Origin: Candidatus Poribacteria bacterium
Lineage (GTDB): Bacteria > Poribacteria > WGA-4E > PCPOR2b
Direction of reading: 5' to 3'
NCBI GenBank assembly: GCA_965215015.1
Contig: OZ244042.1
Span: 3,488,001 to 3,552,000 of the forward strand
Length of the DNA stretch: 64,000 nt
Each line of letters begins with the position of its first letter. Positions within the stretch are counted from its first letter, which is position 1. The position numbers and the translations under genes were made by a program. The notes beneath the pieces were generated by a model, which saw nothing but the letters and a program-made list of their open reading frames with translations, ran no database searches and was not told the DNA's origin. Shown here piece after piece: positions 3,179 through 32,761 of this stretch.

Positions 3179-4909
3179 TTATGCGGGTCTATCGCCCTTC
3201 TGCACCGGTGCGGTCCGGCTATCGACGCCGGGCAACATTTTTGCCGGATCTCGAGTCACAATCACGTCAATGATGGTGGGTATATCGTGTGCAGCGATGC
3301 CTTTGGCGAATGCTGCCCCTAGTTTGGAAGGTTCTGACACCCGAATACCGTGGCACCCGAGCTCACGAGCGACGTTTGCATAATGGGTTTCACTTAAATC
3401 GCTTGATTGATAGCGTCCGCCGTACAGACTGTGCTGGAGGGCCTTGACGTAGCCGGAGGCGGCGTTGTTCACGATGGCAAGGGTGAAACCGAGACCGAGA
3501 CGGCGCGCTGTCTCAAGTTCCCCAAGCATCATGTTGAATCCGGCATCGCCGGTAAGCCCGACCACCGGTGAATCTGGCGCAGCAAGCTGTGCACCGATAG
3601 TTCCCGGTAGCCCGTATCCGATGGAGGCGAATCCTCGATTTGCGATGTAGGAACGTCCCGCGCGGGTTGAGTCGTAGAGCAATCCAGTCCAATGGGCGGC
3701 AAATCCGCCATCAACGACAAGAATCCCGTCATCGGGCATGACGCCTTGCAGTTCGCGGACCAATCTCGCCATGTGAATTGGACGTTCTTCGGAGGCGTAG
3801 CGCGGTTCTGCCTCTGCCCGCCAAGCTGCCATTCGCTGTGCCACTTCCGCTAGGTAGGTTGTGTGTTGGGTCTGTAAGGTTTCGGCGTCGTTAGCAAGGC
3901 TAGCGTGGAGGTCGAGCAATCCTTCAGCGGCATCTCCCCAAAGCGCGACTTCCGTGGGGGTCGTGCGTCCAATTTCCTCCGCCACGATATCGAGATGGAT
4001 GAACGGAACACCCCGCGGCATTAGGGCGTAGCGTTTGGTGGCAATCTCGCCCATTTTGCAGCCGACTGCGAGGATGCAATCTGAAGTTTCGATTAGGTCG
4101 TTGGCAATCCGAGACCACCGACCGAATAGCCCTACACTCAGTGGATGTGTACACGGAATGGCACCCTTCCCGCTCAATGTCTGAGCAACCGGAACGCTGA
4201 AATCTTCGGCGAATTTGAGCAGTGCTTCATAGGCACCTGAGAGATGGATGCCACCTCCGGCGAGTATGATCGGTCGCTTGGAGCGACGGAACTGTGCTAT
4301 GGCTCGTGCAACCGCTTCGCGCCCCGGACGGGGCCGCTGGGCTGGGATGCGGATGGTTGCTGGATCGGCATAAAACTCATCGCTTGGGTAGTCAAATTCT
4401 CCATGTGCCACGTCTTCGGGGACATCCAGAACGACGGGGCCTGGTCGCCCGGAGGTGGCGATGGCGTAGGCACGTCGCACCAGTTCGGGGATGCGAAGCC
4501 CATCTTCGATCCGAATCAACGCCTTGACCGATGGGGCGAGAATCTCCGACTGGCGTGCCTCCTGGGTCATATTTTTCCAAGAATGGGCACGATTGCTGTT
4601 GCCAACGATAACGATGAGGGGCACCCCCGCATTCAACGACTCGACGAGTCCGGTCACTAAATTTGTGGCTCCCGGACCGAGCGTGGCGTCGCAGATACCG
4701 GGGCGTCCGGTCACTCGTGCCCATGCGTCGGCGGCGAACACACCGCACCGCTCGTCGTTGATGAGTGTATGTTTGAGCCCGAGTTCGCGCACTGCGTCGT
4801 AAAAGGGCAATAGCTGGAACCCAGCCATACCGAACATCGGGGCGGGGTTATGGCACTTGAGCATTTCGGCGAGCCCTTGTCCGCCGTTCATCTGTCGAAA
4901 TGAAGACAT
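3179..4909 (-). CDS. Thiamine pyrophosphate-binding protein, acetolactate synthase large-subunit-like
   Basis: GPGATN, SGRPGPVVLDVP, TPP motif GDAGF...NN. Confidence 0.9.
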   Translation of the reverse strand: MSSFRQMNGGQGLAEMLKCHNPAPMFGMAGFQLLPFYDAVRELGLKHTLINDERCGVFAADAWARVTGRPGICDATLGPGATNLVTGLVESLNAGVPLIVIVGNSNRAHSWKNMTQEARQSEILAPSVKALIRIEDGLRIPELVRRAYAIATSGRPGPVVLDVPEDVAHGEFDYPSDEFYADPATIRIPAQRPRPGREAVARAIAQFRRSKRPIILAGGGIHLSGAYEALLKFAEDFSVPVAQTLSGKGAIPCTHPLSVGLFGRWSRIANDLIETSDCILAVGCKMGEIATKRYALMPRGVPFIHLDIVAEEIGRTTPTEVALWGDAAEGLLDLHASLANDAETLQTQHTTYLAEVAQRMAAWRAEAEPRYASEERPIHMARLVRELQGVMPDDGILVVDGGFAAHWTGLLYDSTRAGRSYIANRGFASIGYGLPGTIGAQLAAPDSPVVGLTGDAGFNMMLGELETARRLGLGFTLAIVNNAASGYVKALQHSLYGGRYQSSDLSETHYANVARELGCHGIRVSEPSKLGAAFAKGIAAHDIPTIIDVIVTRDPAKMLPGVDSRTAPVQKGDRPA

Positions 4910-4928
4910 AAATCCTCCTTGCCCTCAG

Positions 4929-5747
4929 TTACGAAGTAAGCAATTCTGCGAAGGCGGGCACCGTCATGCCGATGGTGGCACCGCGTTTGGCAGCTTGCGT
5001 GTTGATATGTGAGATGACTCCGCTCCGCCATGCTGAACGCGCATCGCCGATGCGAGCGGTCATGGTGTCAACTGTGGCCGCCGGAGTGGAATTTTGGTCA
5101 AGGATTCTGAGACGCTGAACCCCAGCCCTATCTATCCCGACGCCGGCATCGTTGAACACTGCGCCTCGTGCCTGTACTGCAAGTCCATAACCGGGTCTAC
5201 CAGCAAGTCTCCCACCATGCGAACCTGTAATGATGAGTGCCCCGGCATCGTCGGGCGTGACAAGCGATGCTGAGTCGCAGGCAAGCACTCTCACCGGCAC
5301 TTCACGCAGCAATTTGCGCGTTTCCTCGTAGGCCGGTGCCTCGCTTTCAAATGCGTTGCCGCGTTGCATAATTTCTGCTGCTTCTCGGCAGGTCTGACCT
5401 ATCACACATCCGAGGGAGATGGCGACTGTATTGCAGTGACTAATCTGTCCGCGTGCGAGCATGTCAGCACCATCTCCGATACGTGCCGATGTATGGCCAA
5501 CCGCTGCTGCTGCCATCCCTAGTAACTGTAGGTAATCGAGGGCCCCGATGCCCGCGCTATCCATCCCGACACCCGCATCATTGAAAATCACACCGCGCAA
5601 GCCTGCGAGTGCTGCCAGATACCCGCAGTAGCTGCCACCGTGGGAGCCGACTACGAGCACGGTTCCCCGGAATTGGGGACCGAGTTTGGTGATGCTGTCG
5701 GCGACTTGAATGGTCCCGATTTCATCGGGATTCAAAACAACTTGCAT
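4929..5747 (-). CDS. Hypothetical protein with two tandem homologous domains
   Basis: GSHGG...FNDAGVG.D.AG...ARIGD occurs twice. Confidence 0.75.
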   Translation of the reverse strand: MQVVLNPDEIGTIQVADSITKLGPQFRGTVLVVGSHGGSYCGYLAALAGLRGVIFNDAGVGMDSAGIGALDYLQLLGMAAAAVGHTSARIGDGADMLARGQISHCNTVAISLGCVIGQTCREAAEIMQRGNAFESEAPAYEETRKLLREVPVRVLACDSASLVTPDDAGALIITGSHGGRLAGRPGYGLAVQARGAVFNDAGVGIDRAGVQRLRILDQNSTPAATVDTMTARIGDARSAWRSGVISHINTQAAKRGATIGMTVPAFAELLTS

Positions 5748-28834: not shown

Positions 28835-29104
28835 GGATACCCACCGTGAACTTTTGACGGTTCGAGGAATCCACGAGTCACGGTTCGTTGGAAAGATCAT
28901 TTCGCTGCGAGGGCAATTGAGGGGGGTGTGAACGCTGGCAAATCCTTCTCAGAGGCTTTTCCGGATGAAGTATCTGAAAACCTGTGTCAACTCAGCGATC
29001 TCTTCCAGGATGAAATTAGTGTCAAACTTGCTGAGGGCGCATAAAACCGCAGTGCAATCGGCAACCGTGCAACATCAACTTGACCATTGTTGCGAGGAAC
29101 GCCT

Positions 29105-30214
29105 ATGATCGCGGCGCATACCGATGTCGTTGGAAGTTTGCTCCGTCCGCCTGAACTGCTCAAAGCGAGGAACGAGATTGCCGCGGGCAAAATGACGCCA
29201 GCGGCGTTCAAGGCTATCGAAGATCAAGCAGTTGATAAAGCTGTCGCCCTTCAGGAAGGGGTGGGCTTGGAGGTCGTTACCGATGGTGAAATGCGTCGGT
29301 TATCTTTCCAGAGCCAGATGACAGAAGCGGTCGCCGGTTTCGGTAAATATAACCTCAATGCCTTCCTCTGGGGTGATTGGCGCGGCGACGGAGGTGCGGG
29401 GAGCTTGAGTATAGAACGCCCCAAGGGTTTGGGTGTTGTCGGCAAGCTCAACCGCAAGCGTCATCTTTCAGGGGAAGAGTTCACCTACCTGCGAGCGCGG
29501 ACGACTCGCATACCGAAGATTACGTTGCCTAGTCCCAGCATGTGGACAAACTTCTGGTCGTCAGAGCACTCTCCGCCCGCCTATCCTACGCTCGAGAGTT
29601 TTCTTGTGGATGTCGTTGACCTTATACGGGGCGAGGTCGCCGAGTTGGTCCGACTGGGTGCAACCTACATTCAGCTGGATGCTCCCCATTATCCGTTGCT
29701 ACTCGATCCTAAGACTAGAGCTTTCTACGAAAGACAAGGCTGGGGGCTTGATCAGTGGCTGGACCGAGGCGTTGAGATGGACAACGCTGTGATTGGCGAT
29801 TTTTCAGATGTGACGTTTGGCTTTCACCTCTGACGCGGCAATCAGAGCAGCCGGTGGTTGGTCGAAGGAGGTTATGAGCTGATAGCCAAACCGATTTTCC
29901 AAGGCATCCGGGCCCAGCGTCTACTGCTTGAATACGATGACGAACGCTCCGGTTCATTTGAACCGTTGAAGGAGATTCCTGATGACAAGATTGTCGTTTT
30001 AGGGTTGGTTACGACGAAAACGCCACGCCGAGAAACGCCGGAAGCACTCACCGCACGCGTTAAGGAAGCCAGCCAATTTGTGCCGATAGAACGGCTTGCA
30101 TTGAGTCCACAGTGTGGCTTTTCAACTTCGGTTGTTGGCAATCGCATTACAGTAGAAGACCAGAGGCATAAGTTGTCGGTGGTTGTTGAGACTGCTAGAA
30201 GGGTGTGGGGCTAA
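29105..30214 (+). CDS. Cobalamin-independent methionine synthase II family (MetE C-terminal domain-like) protein; putative selenoprotein with Sec243 (TGA 29831-29833), 369 aa
   Basis: VVGSLLRP, VTDGEMRR, YIQLDAP, GFHL-[TGA]-RGN at the conserved HxC zinc ligand, LLLEYD, LSPQCGF; ORFs 29087..29833 and 29858..30214 are in the same frame. Confidence 0.88.
29834..29863 (+). promoter_or_regulatory. Putative bacterial SECIS of the MetE-like gene
   Basis: GA-G-CAGCC-(GGT)-GGTTG-G-TC hairpin; loop begins 19 nt after TGA and starts with G. Confidence 0.55.
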
Positions 30215-30222
30215 ACTGGGGA

Positions 30223-30314
30223 GACTCATGTTAAAGGAAAGTGTAAAACGCTAAGAGCTCCCAAGTTTTTCCGAAAAAATTCGGGAGCTGTTGCACGATT
30301 TCTTAACATGAGCC
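30223..30314 (+). mobile_element. Family A MITE-like element
   Basis: Aligns with 15277-15367 and 36010-36100. Confidence 0.7.
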
Positions 30315-30414
30315 ACTGGAGAAAACAGACAAGGTACACCTAGCATCAGATTAAATGGTGCTTTTTGAAGCGTACATTAAAAAACATGAATACGAGTTCA
30401 ATTGGAGGAAGGAT

Positions 30415-30621
30415 ATGGCGCAAACTCCTAAAAACCATCAAACCCGAACTGAATCTATTGGGAAATGGACAATTCGGATTAGATCTTACCAACTCGGTGA
30501 TGTGTATATCTGTACTGTAGACAATGTGAGCCCCGGTGCCGTCATTGCTCGATCTACGGCTGCAGCCCGCGCGGAGGCAGAATCCGAGGCGTTGGCGCAA
30601 GCGAAAGCCGCGATGGCATAA
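30415..30621 (+). CDS. Small hypothetical protein (68 aa) in the selenium cluster
   Basis: GGAGG/AGGA RBS then ATG 30415; SYQLGDVYICTVDNVSPGAVIAR. Confidence 0.7.
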   Translation: MAQTPKNHQTRTESIGKWTIRIRSYQLGDVYICTVDNVSPGAVIARSTAAARAEAESEALAQAKAAMA

Positions 30622-30745
30622 TCGCGTTATACGAAATTGGCTCATGGAAAAAGAAAGTGCAAAGCGCAAAGAGAAGCCGAGCCTTGCCGAAAAAACTCGG
30701 TTTTTGGTGTCTTTGTAGAAAGTAAGAAAAGTTGGGAGCGATAGG

Positions 30746-31807
30746 ATGAACCTAAATAAGTTGTCACGAAAACACACCCTCACAAGTCTGGCAAAAACAT
30801 GCGGGTGAGCGGCGAAGGTCAGTCCAGTTGGACTAGGAGAACTCTTGGCAAAATTGCCGAAGAAAAAGGACCCGAATCTGCTCGTTGGATTTGAAACGAG
30901 CGACGATGCCGGCATCTACCGCCTCGATGATGAAATGGCACTGGTTACGACCGCCGATTTTATCACGCCGCCGGTGGATGACCCGTATCTGTTTGGTCAG
31001 ATTGCTGCAGCCAATTCAATCAGTGATATTTATGCAATGGGCGGCAGACCTGTGACCTGTCTGAATCTGGTGGGGTTTCCGGCGGATAAATTGGGTCCAG
31101 AAATCCTGCACGGAATTGTCGAAGGCGCGTTGAGCAAAATCACCGAAGCCGGCGCAGTCTTGGCGGGCGGGCATACGACCGACGATGAGGAGCCCAAGTT
31201 TGGGTTATCGGTCACTGGGATTGTGCATCCGGAAAAATATTGGCGAAATGTCGGTGCGGAACCGGGGGATGTACTGATCTTGACCAAACCGATTGGCAGC
31301 GGCGTGATTTTTAACGCCAATCTGAAAAACTGGGTGTCAGACCAAGCGTTAGACGAATGTATACAGACTCTCACGATGCTCAACAAGCAGGCGGCGTCGG
31401 TTATGGCTGACTTTGACATCCATGCGGTAACGGACATCACCGGATTCGGATTGGGTGGGCATGCATTGGAAATGGCGGAAGGGTCGGTTGTGACTTTGGA
31501 AATTCACACCGACGCCGTGCCGATTATGCGCGAGGCACTAGAGATGTACCAAAAAGGGATGCGGACCGGTGTCAACGCCGCCAATCGAGCCTTGATTGAA
31601 GATTCCGCACGTTTTGAAAAATCGCTCCCTCCATGGCATGAGGAAATCTTCGTTGATCCGCAGACCAGCGGTGGATTGCTGATGTCTGTGCCGGCTGCTC
31701 AAAGCGAATCGCTGTTGACGGTTCTACACAATGGGGGTGTGGCAAAAGCACAGGTTATTGGAGTTGTGAAGTCCTTTGTCGAACCGAACTATCTTGTTTT
31801 TGTATAA
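30746..31807 (+). CDS. selD: Selenide, water dikinase (selenophosphate synthetase), selenocysteine-containing (Sec21, TGA 30806-30808), 353 aa
   Basis: ATG 30746 in frame: MNLNKLSRKHTLTSLAKTCG-U-AAKVSP...; SDDAG, TADFITP, GGHT, LTKPIG, TDITGFGL, DPQTSGGLL. Confidence 0.95.
30809..30834 (+). promoter_or_regulatory. Putative bacterial SECIS of selD
   Basis: AGTCC-(AGTT)-GGACT hairpin; loop 17 nt after TGA with GT at loop positions 2-3. Confidence 0.65.
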
Positions 31808-31810
31808 ACT

Positions 31811-32761
31811 ATGAAAATCTGCTTAATTACCCCCGCCCCGACATACTCTCGGAAGGGCAACCGCGTGACAGCCCTGCGTTGGGCTCATATCTTACGAGAA
31901 CTAGGCCACCGCGTCATTATCGTTCAAGAATATCAAGGAGAGCGATGCGACCTGTTAGTCGCGCTCCACGCGCGCCGCAGCCACGCTTCTATTGCGCGTT
32001 TCCGCGTTGAACATCCAGAGCTGCCTCTCATCCTTGCCCTGACCGGAACAGACCTCTACGGTGATATTCATACGGACGCCTCCGCCCAGGAATCTCTGGA
32101 GATGGCGGATCGTTTTATTCTTTTGCAACCCGCAGGCGTTGAAGAACTCTCCGAGCATCTGCGTGACAAAGCGTGGGTAATCTATCAATCAATAACGGCA
32201 CCACCGGGTAAATTTTCTCCAAAAAAAAACGTTTTTGAGTTGTGAGTGCTGGGGCATCTGCGTCCCGTGAAGGACCCATTTCGCACTGCGATAGCAGCCC
32301 GAGGGCTGCCTCCATCATCCCAGATTCAGGTAGTGCATGTTGGGGGTGCACTCACCAACGACATGAAAACCGAGGCAGATGCTGAAGCAGCCACCAATCC
32401 ACGTTACCGTTGGTTGGGTGAACTCCCACGCTGGCGGGCCCTCCGCGTCCTCGCACGGAGTCGGGTTCTCGTGCTGACCTCGCGAATGGAGGGAGGGGCG
32501 AATGTGGTTTCCGAGGCAATAGCGTGTTCCGTTCCCGTCATTTCGTCGCGGATATCTGGCTCGATCGGTCTCTTGGGAGAGGATTATCCGGGCTACTTCC
32601 CGGTAGGAGAGACACAGGCGTTGACGGAGCTGCTCATACGTGTTGAGACGGATACCGCTTTTTATAACACACTCAAAGCATGGTGCGAAAGATTAAAGCC
32701 GATTGTTAATCCTGACCGTGAACGTCAGAGTTGGAAACGTCTGCTGAAGGACTTACAGTAA
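31811..32761 (+). CDS. senB: SenB-like selenosugar synthase (GT-B glycosyltransferase, TIGR04348-like); putative selenoprotein with Sec145 (TGA 32243-32245), 316 aa
   Basis: GNRVTALRW, ALHARRS, LTGTDLY, FEL-[TGA]-VLGHLRPVKDP, SRMEGGANVVSEA, GLLGEDYPGYFPVG; starts 3 bp after selD; the two listed ORFs are contiguous and in frame. Confidence 0.85.
32246..32287 (+). promoter_or_regulatory. Putative bacterial SECIS of the senB-like gene
   Basis: GTCC-(CGTGAA)-GGAC hairpin with loop 20 nt after TGA and GT at loop positions 2-3; possible outer GTGC/GCAC stem. Confidence 0.55.

Follow-up and report, generated by a model that had tools for sequence, protein, structure and literature searches.

A single-domain MetE-family gene of Candidatus Poribacteria with an in-frame TGA, almost certainly a selenocysteine codon, at a predicted zinc-ligand position

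Almost all known selenoproteins are redox enzymes and, to our knowledge, the metals bound by selenocysteine (Sec) in known proteins are Mo/W or Ni. A gene of a Candidatus Poribacteria bacterium, a sponge symbiont, raises the question of whether Sec can also occupy the zinc site of a methyl-transfer enzyme. The gene lies in a stretch of 64,000 nucleotides (assembly GCA_965215015.1, contig OZ244042.1, positions 3,488,001 to 3,552,000), the whole of which is called the window here, and it encodes a protein of the methionine synthase II (MetE) family with an in-frame TGA at a predicted zinc-ligand position. Is this TGA a stop or a Sec codon, and what would Sec do there? At a probability of roughly 0.85, we read the gene as encoding a single-barrel MetE-family selenoprotein in which UGA-243, decoded through SelB and a hairpin, supplies Sec in place of a zinc-site cysteine, for methyl transfer.

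A MetE-family gene with one in-frame TGA

The gene occupies positions 29105–30214 of the forward strand and comprises 369 codons. Its sole internal stop is the TGA of codon 243 (29831–29833), which column comparison with orthologues places at the cysteine of an H-x-C motif and which is read here as Sec (U243); the frame contains neither a frameshift nor a second stop. The peptide around this codon is VTFGFHL-U-RGNQSSRWL, and the motifs LLLEYDDERSG and SPQCGF are both unbroken 3′ of it. Translation of the gene thus agrees with a preliminary description of the locus, which had noted GFHL-TGA-RGNQ with LLLEYD and SPQCGF intact. Open reading frame (ORF) calling with translation table 11 cuts the frame in two (29087–29833 and 29858–30214). 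Logan contigs from four runs of one study, possibly of the source sample, match 29105–30316 with 0 differences.

The membership of the Meth_synt_2 family proposed in the same description is borne out by a match to Pfam PF01717 over residues 6–343 (58.3 bits with a cut-off of 21). The best NCBIfam models, PRK06520 (235.2 bits with a cut-off of 313) and PRK06233 (225 bits with a cut-off of 576), both represent single-domain ‘methionine synthase’ proteins and both score below their cut-offs; NCBIfam release 20.0 holds no model dedicated to the present family. By these profile scores, the protein belongs to an orthogroup that is related to, but separate from, PRK06520 and PRK06233. It is not MetE proper, which comprises two barrels and approximately 750 residues, with a folate-binding N-terminal barrel: the two-barrel model TIGR01371 scores 35.5 bits with a cut-off of 930, and the C-terminal half of the profile alone matches. 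The nearest solved structure is Protein Data Bank (PDB) entry 1YPX (phmmer E-value of 5e-51), with an alignment running end to end over residues 5–369.

The genome containing the window consists of one contig, C1, of 5.94 Mb. It encodes two more single-domain paralogues of the MetE-like protein (27–33% identity), and a two-barrel MetE was not found in it. The domains of MetH are present as separate pieces, with the homocysteine-, pterin- and B12-binding domains within approximately 10 kb (C1:381126–390464) and the activation domain apart from them (C1:525191–526048). Given the MetH-like pieces, the two paralogues and the lack of a two-barrel MetE, the housekeeping methionine synthase need not be encoded by the MetE-like Sec gene. 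Adjacent short frames of 146 and 104 residues at C1:3218865–3219492 match residues 150–262 and 269–364 of the protein at 34–35% identity, and on this alignment they are probably a broken paralogue.

Predicted zinc site

Residues H241, C/U243, E276 and C337 are invariant in an alignment of 30 orthologues that includes Sec and Cys forms. The motif HLURGN faces HICRGN of 1YPX and HICYG of 3RPD, and SPQCGF faces the C-terminal Cys motif of both. The profile matches to these entries (E-values of 2e-70 and 2e-14, respectively) cover the HxC motif and the C-terminal Cys-Gly motif, and the profile also aligns the latter with NPDCG of fungal MetE. The TGA had been assigned in the preliminary description to the cysteine of an HxC zinc-ligand motif; it aligns with that cysteine in 1YPX and 3RPD, and the remaining ligands H241, E276 and C337 are invariant.

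The AlphaFold2 (AF2) model of the protein has a predicted local distance difference test score of 88.6 and a predicted template modelling score of 0.90, and is least confident at residues 247–250, just past the Sec. For its (beta-alpha)8 barrel, the first Foldseek matches are 1YPX (TMq of 0.75), the C-terminal barrels of MetE (1XPG and 4L6H) and 3RPD (probability of 1.00 and TMq of 0.72–0.75 for the set), followed by an MtaA-like methyltransferase and then by UroD. The predicted zinc ligand His241 (codon at 29825–29827) is at the end of strand 237–242, with U243 in the loop after this strand. Glu276 (29930–29932), also a predicted ligand, is at the end of strand 272–276, and the predicted distal ligand Cys337 (30113–30115), within SPQCGF, is in the loop after strand 331–335. 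These positions in the model match the topological places of the ligands of Thermotoga maritima MetE, in which beta-5 ends with His618 and beta-6 with Glu642, Cys620 lies in a loop and Cys704 follows beta-8 (PMC539065, excerpt on the zinc site). According to the alignment and the model, U243 sits at the cysteine of the predicted His-x-Cys...Glu...Cys zinc site of MetE, and zinc may be bound through its selenium.

Decoding of TGA-243

The gene was compared across 41 genomes of the Candidatus Poribacteria order, the genome of the window counted. An orthologue (78–100% identity) is present in 22 of them, namely the genome of the window, all 19 of its genus mates, G020 and G022, which together represent three genera, and all 22 orthologues contain an in-frame TGA. 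The column between FGFHL and RGNQ holds TGA in the 20/20 genus loci read, and likewise in G020 and G022. This recurrence at one column in the genus and in two further genera shows that the TGA is neither a chance event nor an assembly slip. The preliminary description had named a TGA confined to this assembly and accompanied by other signs of decay as one finding that would speak against Sec; 22 genomes of the order carry the TGA, and no such signs were seen in the gene of the window.

Selection on the gene continues past the TGA. The ratio of nonsynonymous to synonymous substitution rates (dN/dS) over 20 sequences is 0.104 for codons 1–242 and 0.108 for codons 244–369 (dS of 0.64 and 0.56, respectively), and its equality on both sides indicates that the part 3′ of the stop is under the same protein-level selection. 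The nine residues directly after the TGA (RGNQGSRWL) are conserved, so that no restart of translation is needed.

The genome encodes the machinery for Sec insertion. The genes selA, selB and tRNA-Sec form a cluster at C1:4763111–4766642, all scoring above their cut-offs, and the only selD above cut-off is located in the window, at 30746–31807. Two more Sec-form genomes, G041 and G042, were examined for selB, and each of them encodes it. The genetic code is standard, because TGA terminates 15 of the 38 ORFs of at least 200 amino acids in the window. From this genomic evidence, TGA-243 almost certainly encodes selenocysteine.

Hairpin downstream of the TGA

In the model of a bacterial selenocysteine insertion sequence (SECIS), a hairpin closely follows the UGA; its apical loop contains G/U and is approximately 16–37 nt from the UGA. 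A SECIS-like hairpin is located at 29845–29863 of the forward strand, after a spacer of 11 nt. The 5′ arm comprises 29845–29852 (29847 unpaired), the loop GGU 29853–29855 and the 3′ arm 29856–29863 (29861 unpaired); the stem has 7 bp with one internal mismatch, and the loop is GGU or GUU among the sequences. This hairpin is both the minimum free energy (MFE) and the centroid fold of the 42 nt 3′ of the TGA, and its core is also part of the MFE structure of a separate fold. It has the position and loop of a hairpin of a bacterial selenoprotein, with an energy no better than that of shuffled sequences and weak covariation (two pairs).

The synonymous sites at the hairpin are constrained, which suggests that it is under selection. 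Among 360 ten-codon segments of the gene, the five with the lowest third-position entropy start at codons 242–246 (0.13–0.18 bits, with a gene mean of 0.68), whereas the same segment in Cys forms ranks 107/356 in SAR202 (n = 9) and 72/361 in beta-proteobacterial metagenome-assembled genomes (MAGs; n = 8). Pairing extends to 96.6% of hairpin cells in 17 distinct Sec-form sequences, which come from several lineages, and 23/500 shuffles reach this value; double-sided changes occur at two pairs, one of them a change from C-G to A-U at the third positions of two codons in L149. In 45 distinct Cys-form sequences, 81.9% of cells pair, which 457/500 shuffles reach, and 28 of the 45 sequences lack pair 18-30 and 23 lack pair 15-33. 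The Arg codon that gives the middle base of the loop is CGG (16) or CGT (3) in 19/19 Sec forms, whereas in 60 Cys forms it is CGC in 52, CGG in 3, AGA in 2, CGT in 2 and CGA in 1. In these alignments, only the TGA forms show the synonymous constraint and the bias in the loop codon.

Distribution of Sec and Cys forms

A collection of 5.8 billion proteins contains at least 7,940 relatives with E-values of at most 1e-60, and the source names of the best of them are ‘cobalamin-independent methionine synthase II family protein’ or ‘MetE-like’. The best full-length relative is 77% identical, and no full-length protein above 80% identity is present in this collection; the Poribacteria genes have therefore apparently never been annotated whole.

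Orthologues outside Poribacteria, at 54–77% identity, carry Cys, and some other lineages carry TGA. In species genomes outside Poribacteria, the site is Cys (TGC or TGT) at 30 loci and TGA at two, L073 of an unclassified bacterium and L076 of Dehalococcoidia; one further locus ends short of the site. The Cys forms belong to Burkholderiales and other beta-proteobacterial MAGs, SAR202/Dehalococcoidia, Actinomycetota, Gammaproteobacteria including Sulfuricaulis, and SAR324. Metagenome contigs span the site in 58 of 70 orthologue loci, with TGA in 11 and TGC or TGT in 47. The TGA is thus aligned with Cys at 30 genome loci and 47 metagenome loci, as well as in 1YPX and 3RPD. Three unpublished genomes, G048, G062 and G066 (loci L069, L087 and L092), are Cys forms that enter the Cys tallies, the tree, and the Cys hairpin and selB counts; no statement about Sec forms depends on them.

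A maximum-likelihood tree was built from 79 distinct sequences of at least 330 amino acids (19 Sec and 60 Cys; five of the 20 genus sequences, partial sequences excluded). It requires at least six switches between Sec and Cys, three of which are forced by well-supported branches. The count of Sec/Cys pairs suggested in the preliminary description yields both forms, with 11 TGA and 47 TGY metagenome loci and at least six switches on the tree.

The orthogroup in its entirety was also tested for an association with the Sec trait, and no clear enrichment was found. A selB gene above cut-off is present in 23/32 orthologue bearers outside Poribacteria, with a background of 32/121 genomes in the order of G043, and in 4/8 beta-proteobacterial bearers; in the Poribacteria order selB is near-universal (40/41 genomes) and hence uninformative on this point. 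At L099 of a Gammaproteobacteria MAG (4001–5101), a Cys-form copy has six stops and a garbled middle third, and by its sequence it is frameshifted and decaying.

Selenium genes around the MetE-like gene

The genes that follow on the forward strand belong largely to selenium metabolism. An ORF of 88 amino acids at 30355–30621 is conserved, and tblastn detects it at the same place in 14/14 Poribacteria loci with enough flank (74–91% identity); it has no Pfam or NCBIfam family, and an Atlas search gave only unnamed clusters below 0.9. The selD/senC gene (selenide, water dikinase; 30746–31807; TIGR00476, 375 bits with a cut-off of 125) encodes a selenoprotein itself, with U21 at TGA 30806–30808, and this single selD presumably serves both Sec synthesis and, as SenC, selenoneine synthesis. 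The senB gene (31811–32761) was assigned by orthologue comparison to the selenosugar synthase of selenoneine biosynthesis; the orthologue at L052:6477–7427 scores 398 bits against TIGR04348 (cut-off of 300), and the window copy aligns with it at 87% identity through an in-frame TGA (32243–32245). Selenoneine is a selenium antioxidant.

The 88-residue ORF, selD and senB lie downstream of the MetE-like gene in the window and in 14/14 further Poribacteria loci (L052–L064 and L095), but not in L065 of G020. In G022, of the sister genus (L064, 195–9105), the order is egtD, an ABC ATPase gene, a fused OpuAC-permease gene, an ORF of 156 amino acids, the MetE-like Sec gene, senA (NF041186, 526 bits with a cut-off of 420), a small ORF, selD and senB. 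We take the fused OpuAC-permease to be a betaine-type transporter resembling the ergothioneine importer EgtUV. Placed between egtD and senA in this genome, the MetE-like Sec gene is inside the selenoneine cluster. In L073, senA (519 bits) is directly 3′ of the Sec gene, and in the genome of the window senA is 214 kb from it. The published sen cluster consists of three genes (SenA, SenB and SenC); a term search of the text of the 2022 sen-cluster preprint found no mention of a MetE-like gene.

The association is not a consistent one across organisms. SenA is encoded in 22/22 genomes of the order with the Sec gene, yet also in 9/19 without it, which counts against a necessary link with selenoneine synthesis, and it scores above cut-off in only 2/5 other orthologue-bearing genomes. 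The sel and sen genes are absent near L065, L076 and all 11 metagenome Sec loci (contigs of 1.3–8.1 kb), and were not found near Cys forms other than the Sulfuricaulis type.

At L086, L158 and L159, a Sulfuricaulis-type Cys form is followed immediately by selA and selB. At L065, a gene for a URO-D/MtaA-CmuA-like methyltransferase (1262–2413, below cut-off) is located 1.5 kb upstream of the Sec gene.

Proposed mechanism and alternatives

In the proposed mechanism, SelB would decode UGA-243 as Sec with the aid of the short hairpin 11 nt downstream, and Zn2+ would most likely be held by His241, Sec243 and Cys337 together with a displaceable Glu276. As in MetE, the role of the zinc would be to activate the substrate, a thiol or selenol, for methyl (alkyl) transfer. 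Oxidised MetE crystals have lost their zinc and formed a Cys620–Cys704 disulfide (PMC539065, excerpt on the oxidised form), and a possible benefit of Sec is therefore a selenenylsulfide that is more readily reduced than this inactivating disulfide; another is a tuned zinc site. The substrate may be homocysteine, the default of the family, or a selenol of the neighbouring selenoneine pathway. Candidate roles include homocysteine remethylation, which would also recycle the three S-adenosylmethionine molecules spent by EgtD per hercynine, methylation of a pathway selenol, and demethylation of methyl-selenium compounds feeding SelD; for the last, the precedent is a proposal for MtaA-like proteins of the same superfamily (PMC10418091, in part).

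The narrower idea of a Zn-selenolate accessory enzyme of selenium small-molecule metabolism, which would methylate a selenol of the selenoneine pathway or, in reverse, demethylate methyl-selenium compounds and so supply selenide to the adjacent SelD, is tentative and has a low probability. If selenol methylation were correct, the product would be Se-methylselenoneine or a methyl-selenosugar, for the formation of which the listing of a literature search names no bacterial enzyme; with such an accessory protein, selenocysteine would for the first time be a zinc ligand in a natural enzyme.

Several observations weigh against a zinc-site selenoprotein for methyl transfer. Sec insertion is deduced from genome comparison, and the zinc site from alignment and a model; a search for RNA runs found none. 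The activity cannot be transferred from the named single-domain families, because the protein scores below their NCBIfam cut-offs. In one species, G005 (L041 and L063), codon 130 is a further in-frame TGA; the codon is CGA (Arg) in the window and encodes Arg in the others too. Decay or an error of sequencing, limited to this species, may account for it. The hairpin has no extra stability over shuffled sequences (z of -0.13 and -0.08), as is also true of the accepted SECIS of selD (z of +0.50). Its pair counts within the genus are reached by 470/500 shuffles, the conserved peptide QGSRWL largely imposes the stem, and the hairpin is partly present in Cys forms. An Rfam scan with E-values up to 10 detected a SECIS neither at codon 243 nor at selD, and RNAalifold gave a different consensus fold for 20 genus sequences, with 0 compensatory pairs. 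The RNAalifold structure was set aside for the hand model, which fits the spacing, the footprint of synonymous constraint and the MFE fold.

Two alternatives deny that Sec is inserted. If the TGA were a real stop, leaving a pseudogene or a truncated protein of 242 residues, the division of the frame under table 11 would follow, as would the lack of full-length proteins above 77% identity in the 5.8-billion-protein collection, which suggests that annotators called these genes piecewise; the extra TGA in G005 points the same way. This is highly improbable, given that the stop is kept at one column over 13–22% protein divergence in 22 genomes, that downstream dN/dS (0.108) equals that upstream, and that the invariant predicted ligands E276 and C337 lie 3′ of the TGA, so that the barrel and the metal site would be incomplete without them. 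Hardly more credible is a split gene with a restart at TTG 29858, or read-through with Trp or Cys by a near-cognate tRNA or an altered code. A TTG does occur eight codons past the TGA and the hairpin is thermodynamically unremarkable, but the intervening codons encode the invariant RGNQ(G/S)SRW, the most constrained stretch of the gene. Furthermore, the code is standard in the window, homologues have Cys at the column and never Trp, the Sec machinery is complete in the genome, and the synonymous constraint and loop codon bias are confined to TGA forms.

A third alternative accepts Sec243 and denies that it is a zinc ligand: it would instead be a redox or nucleophilic centre that, for example, binds a selenol such as selenoneine or a selenosugar in Se-S or Se-Se adducts, or shuttles Se to SelD. 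Such a role would suit the residue, which in selenoproteins is mostly redox or nucleophilic (PMC13188914), and the neighbouring selD, senB and senA; the equivalent Cys of oxidised MetE is in a disulfide with the distal Cys after zinc loss (PMC539065, same excerpt), and the AF2 model is least certain right after the Sec. It is nevertheless doubtful, though less remote than the other two, because the 30 orthologues, Sec and Cys forms alike, are invariant at all four ligand positions, the fold can be superposed on structures of Zn-bound MetE, and no mark of a different chemistry is found in the sequence. A zinc-site Sec in a methyl-transfer protein is thus the reading that we prefer.

Relation to known systems

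The MetE-like Sec protein resembles 1YPX (Listeria), 3RPD (Shewanella) and YxjG/YxjH (Firmicutes) in consisting of one (beta-alpha)8 barrel of approximately 370 amino acids, and shares with the single-domain homologues the H-x-C-R/Y-G motif, the Glu and the distal Cys-Gly motif. Unlike them, the window protein has Sec for Cys, and its orthogroup has a specific insert with an invariant FLWGDW (residues 87–92), which is absent from 1YPX. The regulation of yxjH by methionine and its transcription together with luxS point to homocysteine methylation (PMC6004538, excerpt). No characterised member of the MetE-like Sec orthogroup was found in literature searches. The protein has the same fold as the catalytic C-terminal barrel of MetE proper, and the four ligand positions coincide, lying where strands 5, 6 and 8 end; it differs in having no N-terminal folate-polyglutamate barrel and approximately 11 more residues from the Cys/Sec to the Glu.

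Sec is a metal ligand in FdhA (Mo/W-Se) and in [NiFeSe] hydrogenase (Ni-Se), and Sec forms of arsenite methyltransferase and of methylated-DNA-protein-cysteine methyltransferase have been described (PMC13188914). The present protein is like these in having Sec in place of a metal-binding or alkyl-accepting Cys and in forming Sec/Cys pairs across lineages, but no zinc site of the MetE/UroD superfamily is among them. Type 1 MGC clusters encode MtaA-like Mlp methyltransferases, which belong to the UroD superfamily and are proposed to demethylate methyl-selenium compounds; their genes are genomically linked to selABCD (PMC10418091, excerpt). They share with the Sec protein a superfamily of Zn-dependent thiol/selenol methyltransferases; they differ in being corrinoid-dependent URO-D family proteins of anaerobes, and the same excerpt does not report Sec at their zinc ligand.

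The suspicion in the preliminary description that this is not a listed selenoprotein family held up: the whole of Table 1 of a 2026 review (PMC13188914), with 119 families and subfamilies, contains no MetE, Meth_synt_2 or PF01717 entry. Nor was the family found by term searches of that review, of deep-Sep (text and supplements), of BSepDB (text) or of the GOS 2008 paper; for BSepDB the absence concerns the text only, as its supplement has no ‘methionine’ and is probably not the family table. Full-text searches for selenoprotein together with MetE-type terms gave nothing relevant by title or abstract; this negative does not extend to the selenoprotein list in Table S9 of PMC9402790.

If correct, Sec in the zinc site of a methyl-transfer enzyme extends the chemistry for which cells bear the cost of Sec. 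The natural Sec/Cys pairs, separated by at least six switches, are material for asking how selenium affects a Lewis-acid zinc centre and its oxidative inactivation. Annotation seems to halve these genes, and selenoproteome surveys of marine and soil metagenomes therefore probably count too few members of the family. By its place inside the selenoneine cluster of sponge symbionts, the gene is a concrete candidate for a step of selenium small-molecule metabolism not described so far.

Other features of the locus

The in-frame TGA of senB (32243–32245) is unique to the genome of the window: the codon encodes Cys (TGT or TGC) in 12 other Poribacteria species and Ser (TCA) in G022. It is reproduced by Logan contigs from four runs of one study, and GTG follows it directly; shuffled sequences fold as well as the hairpin 3′ of it. 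The codon reflects either a nonsense mutation of recent date, cutting senB in two, or a very young change from Cys to Sec.

A promoter and terminator scan gave nothing usable on operon structure. Short palindromic multi-copy elements are located at 30277–30317 and at approximately 30639–30700. Read contigs break at both places with many continuations, and the summed depth rises 7–8 fold there; the elements look like repetitive extragenic palindromic (REP)-like intergenic repeats.

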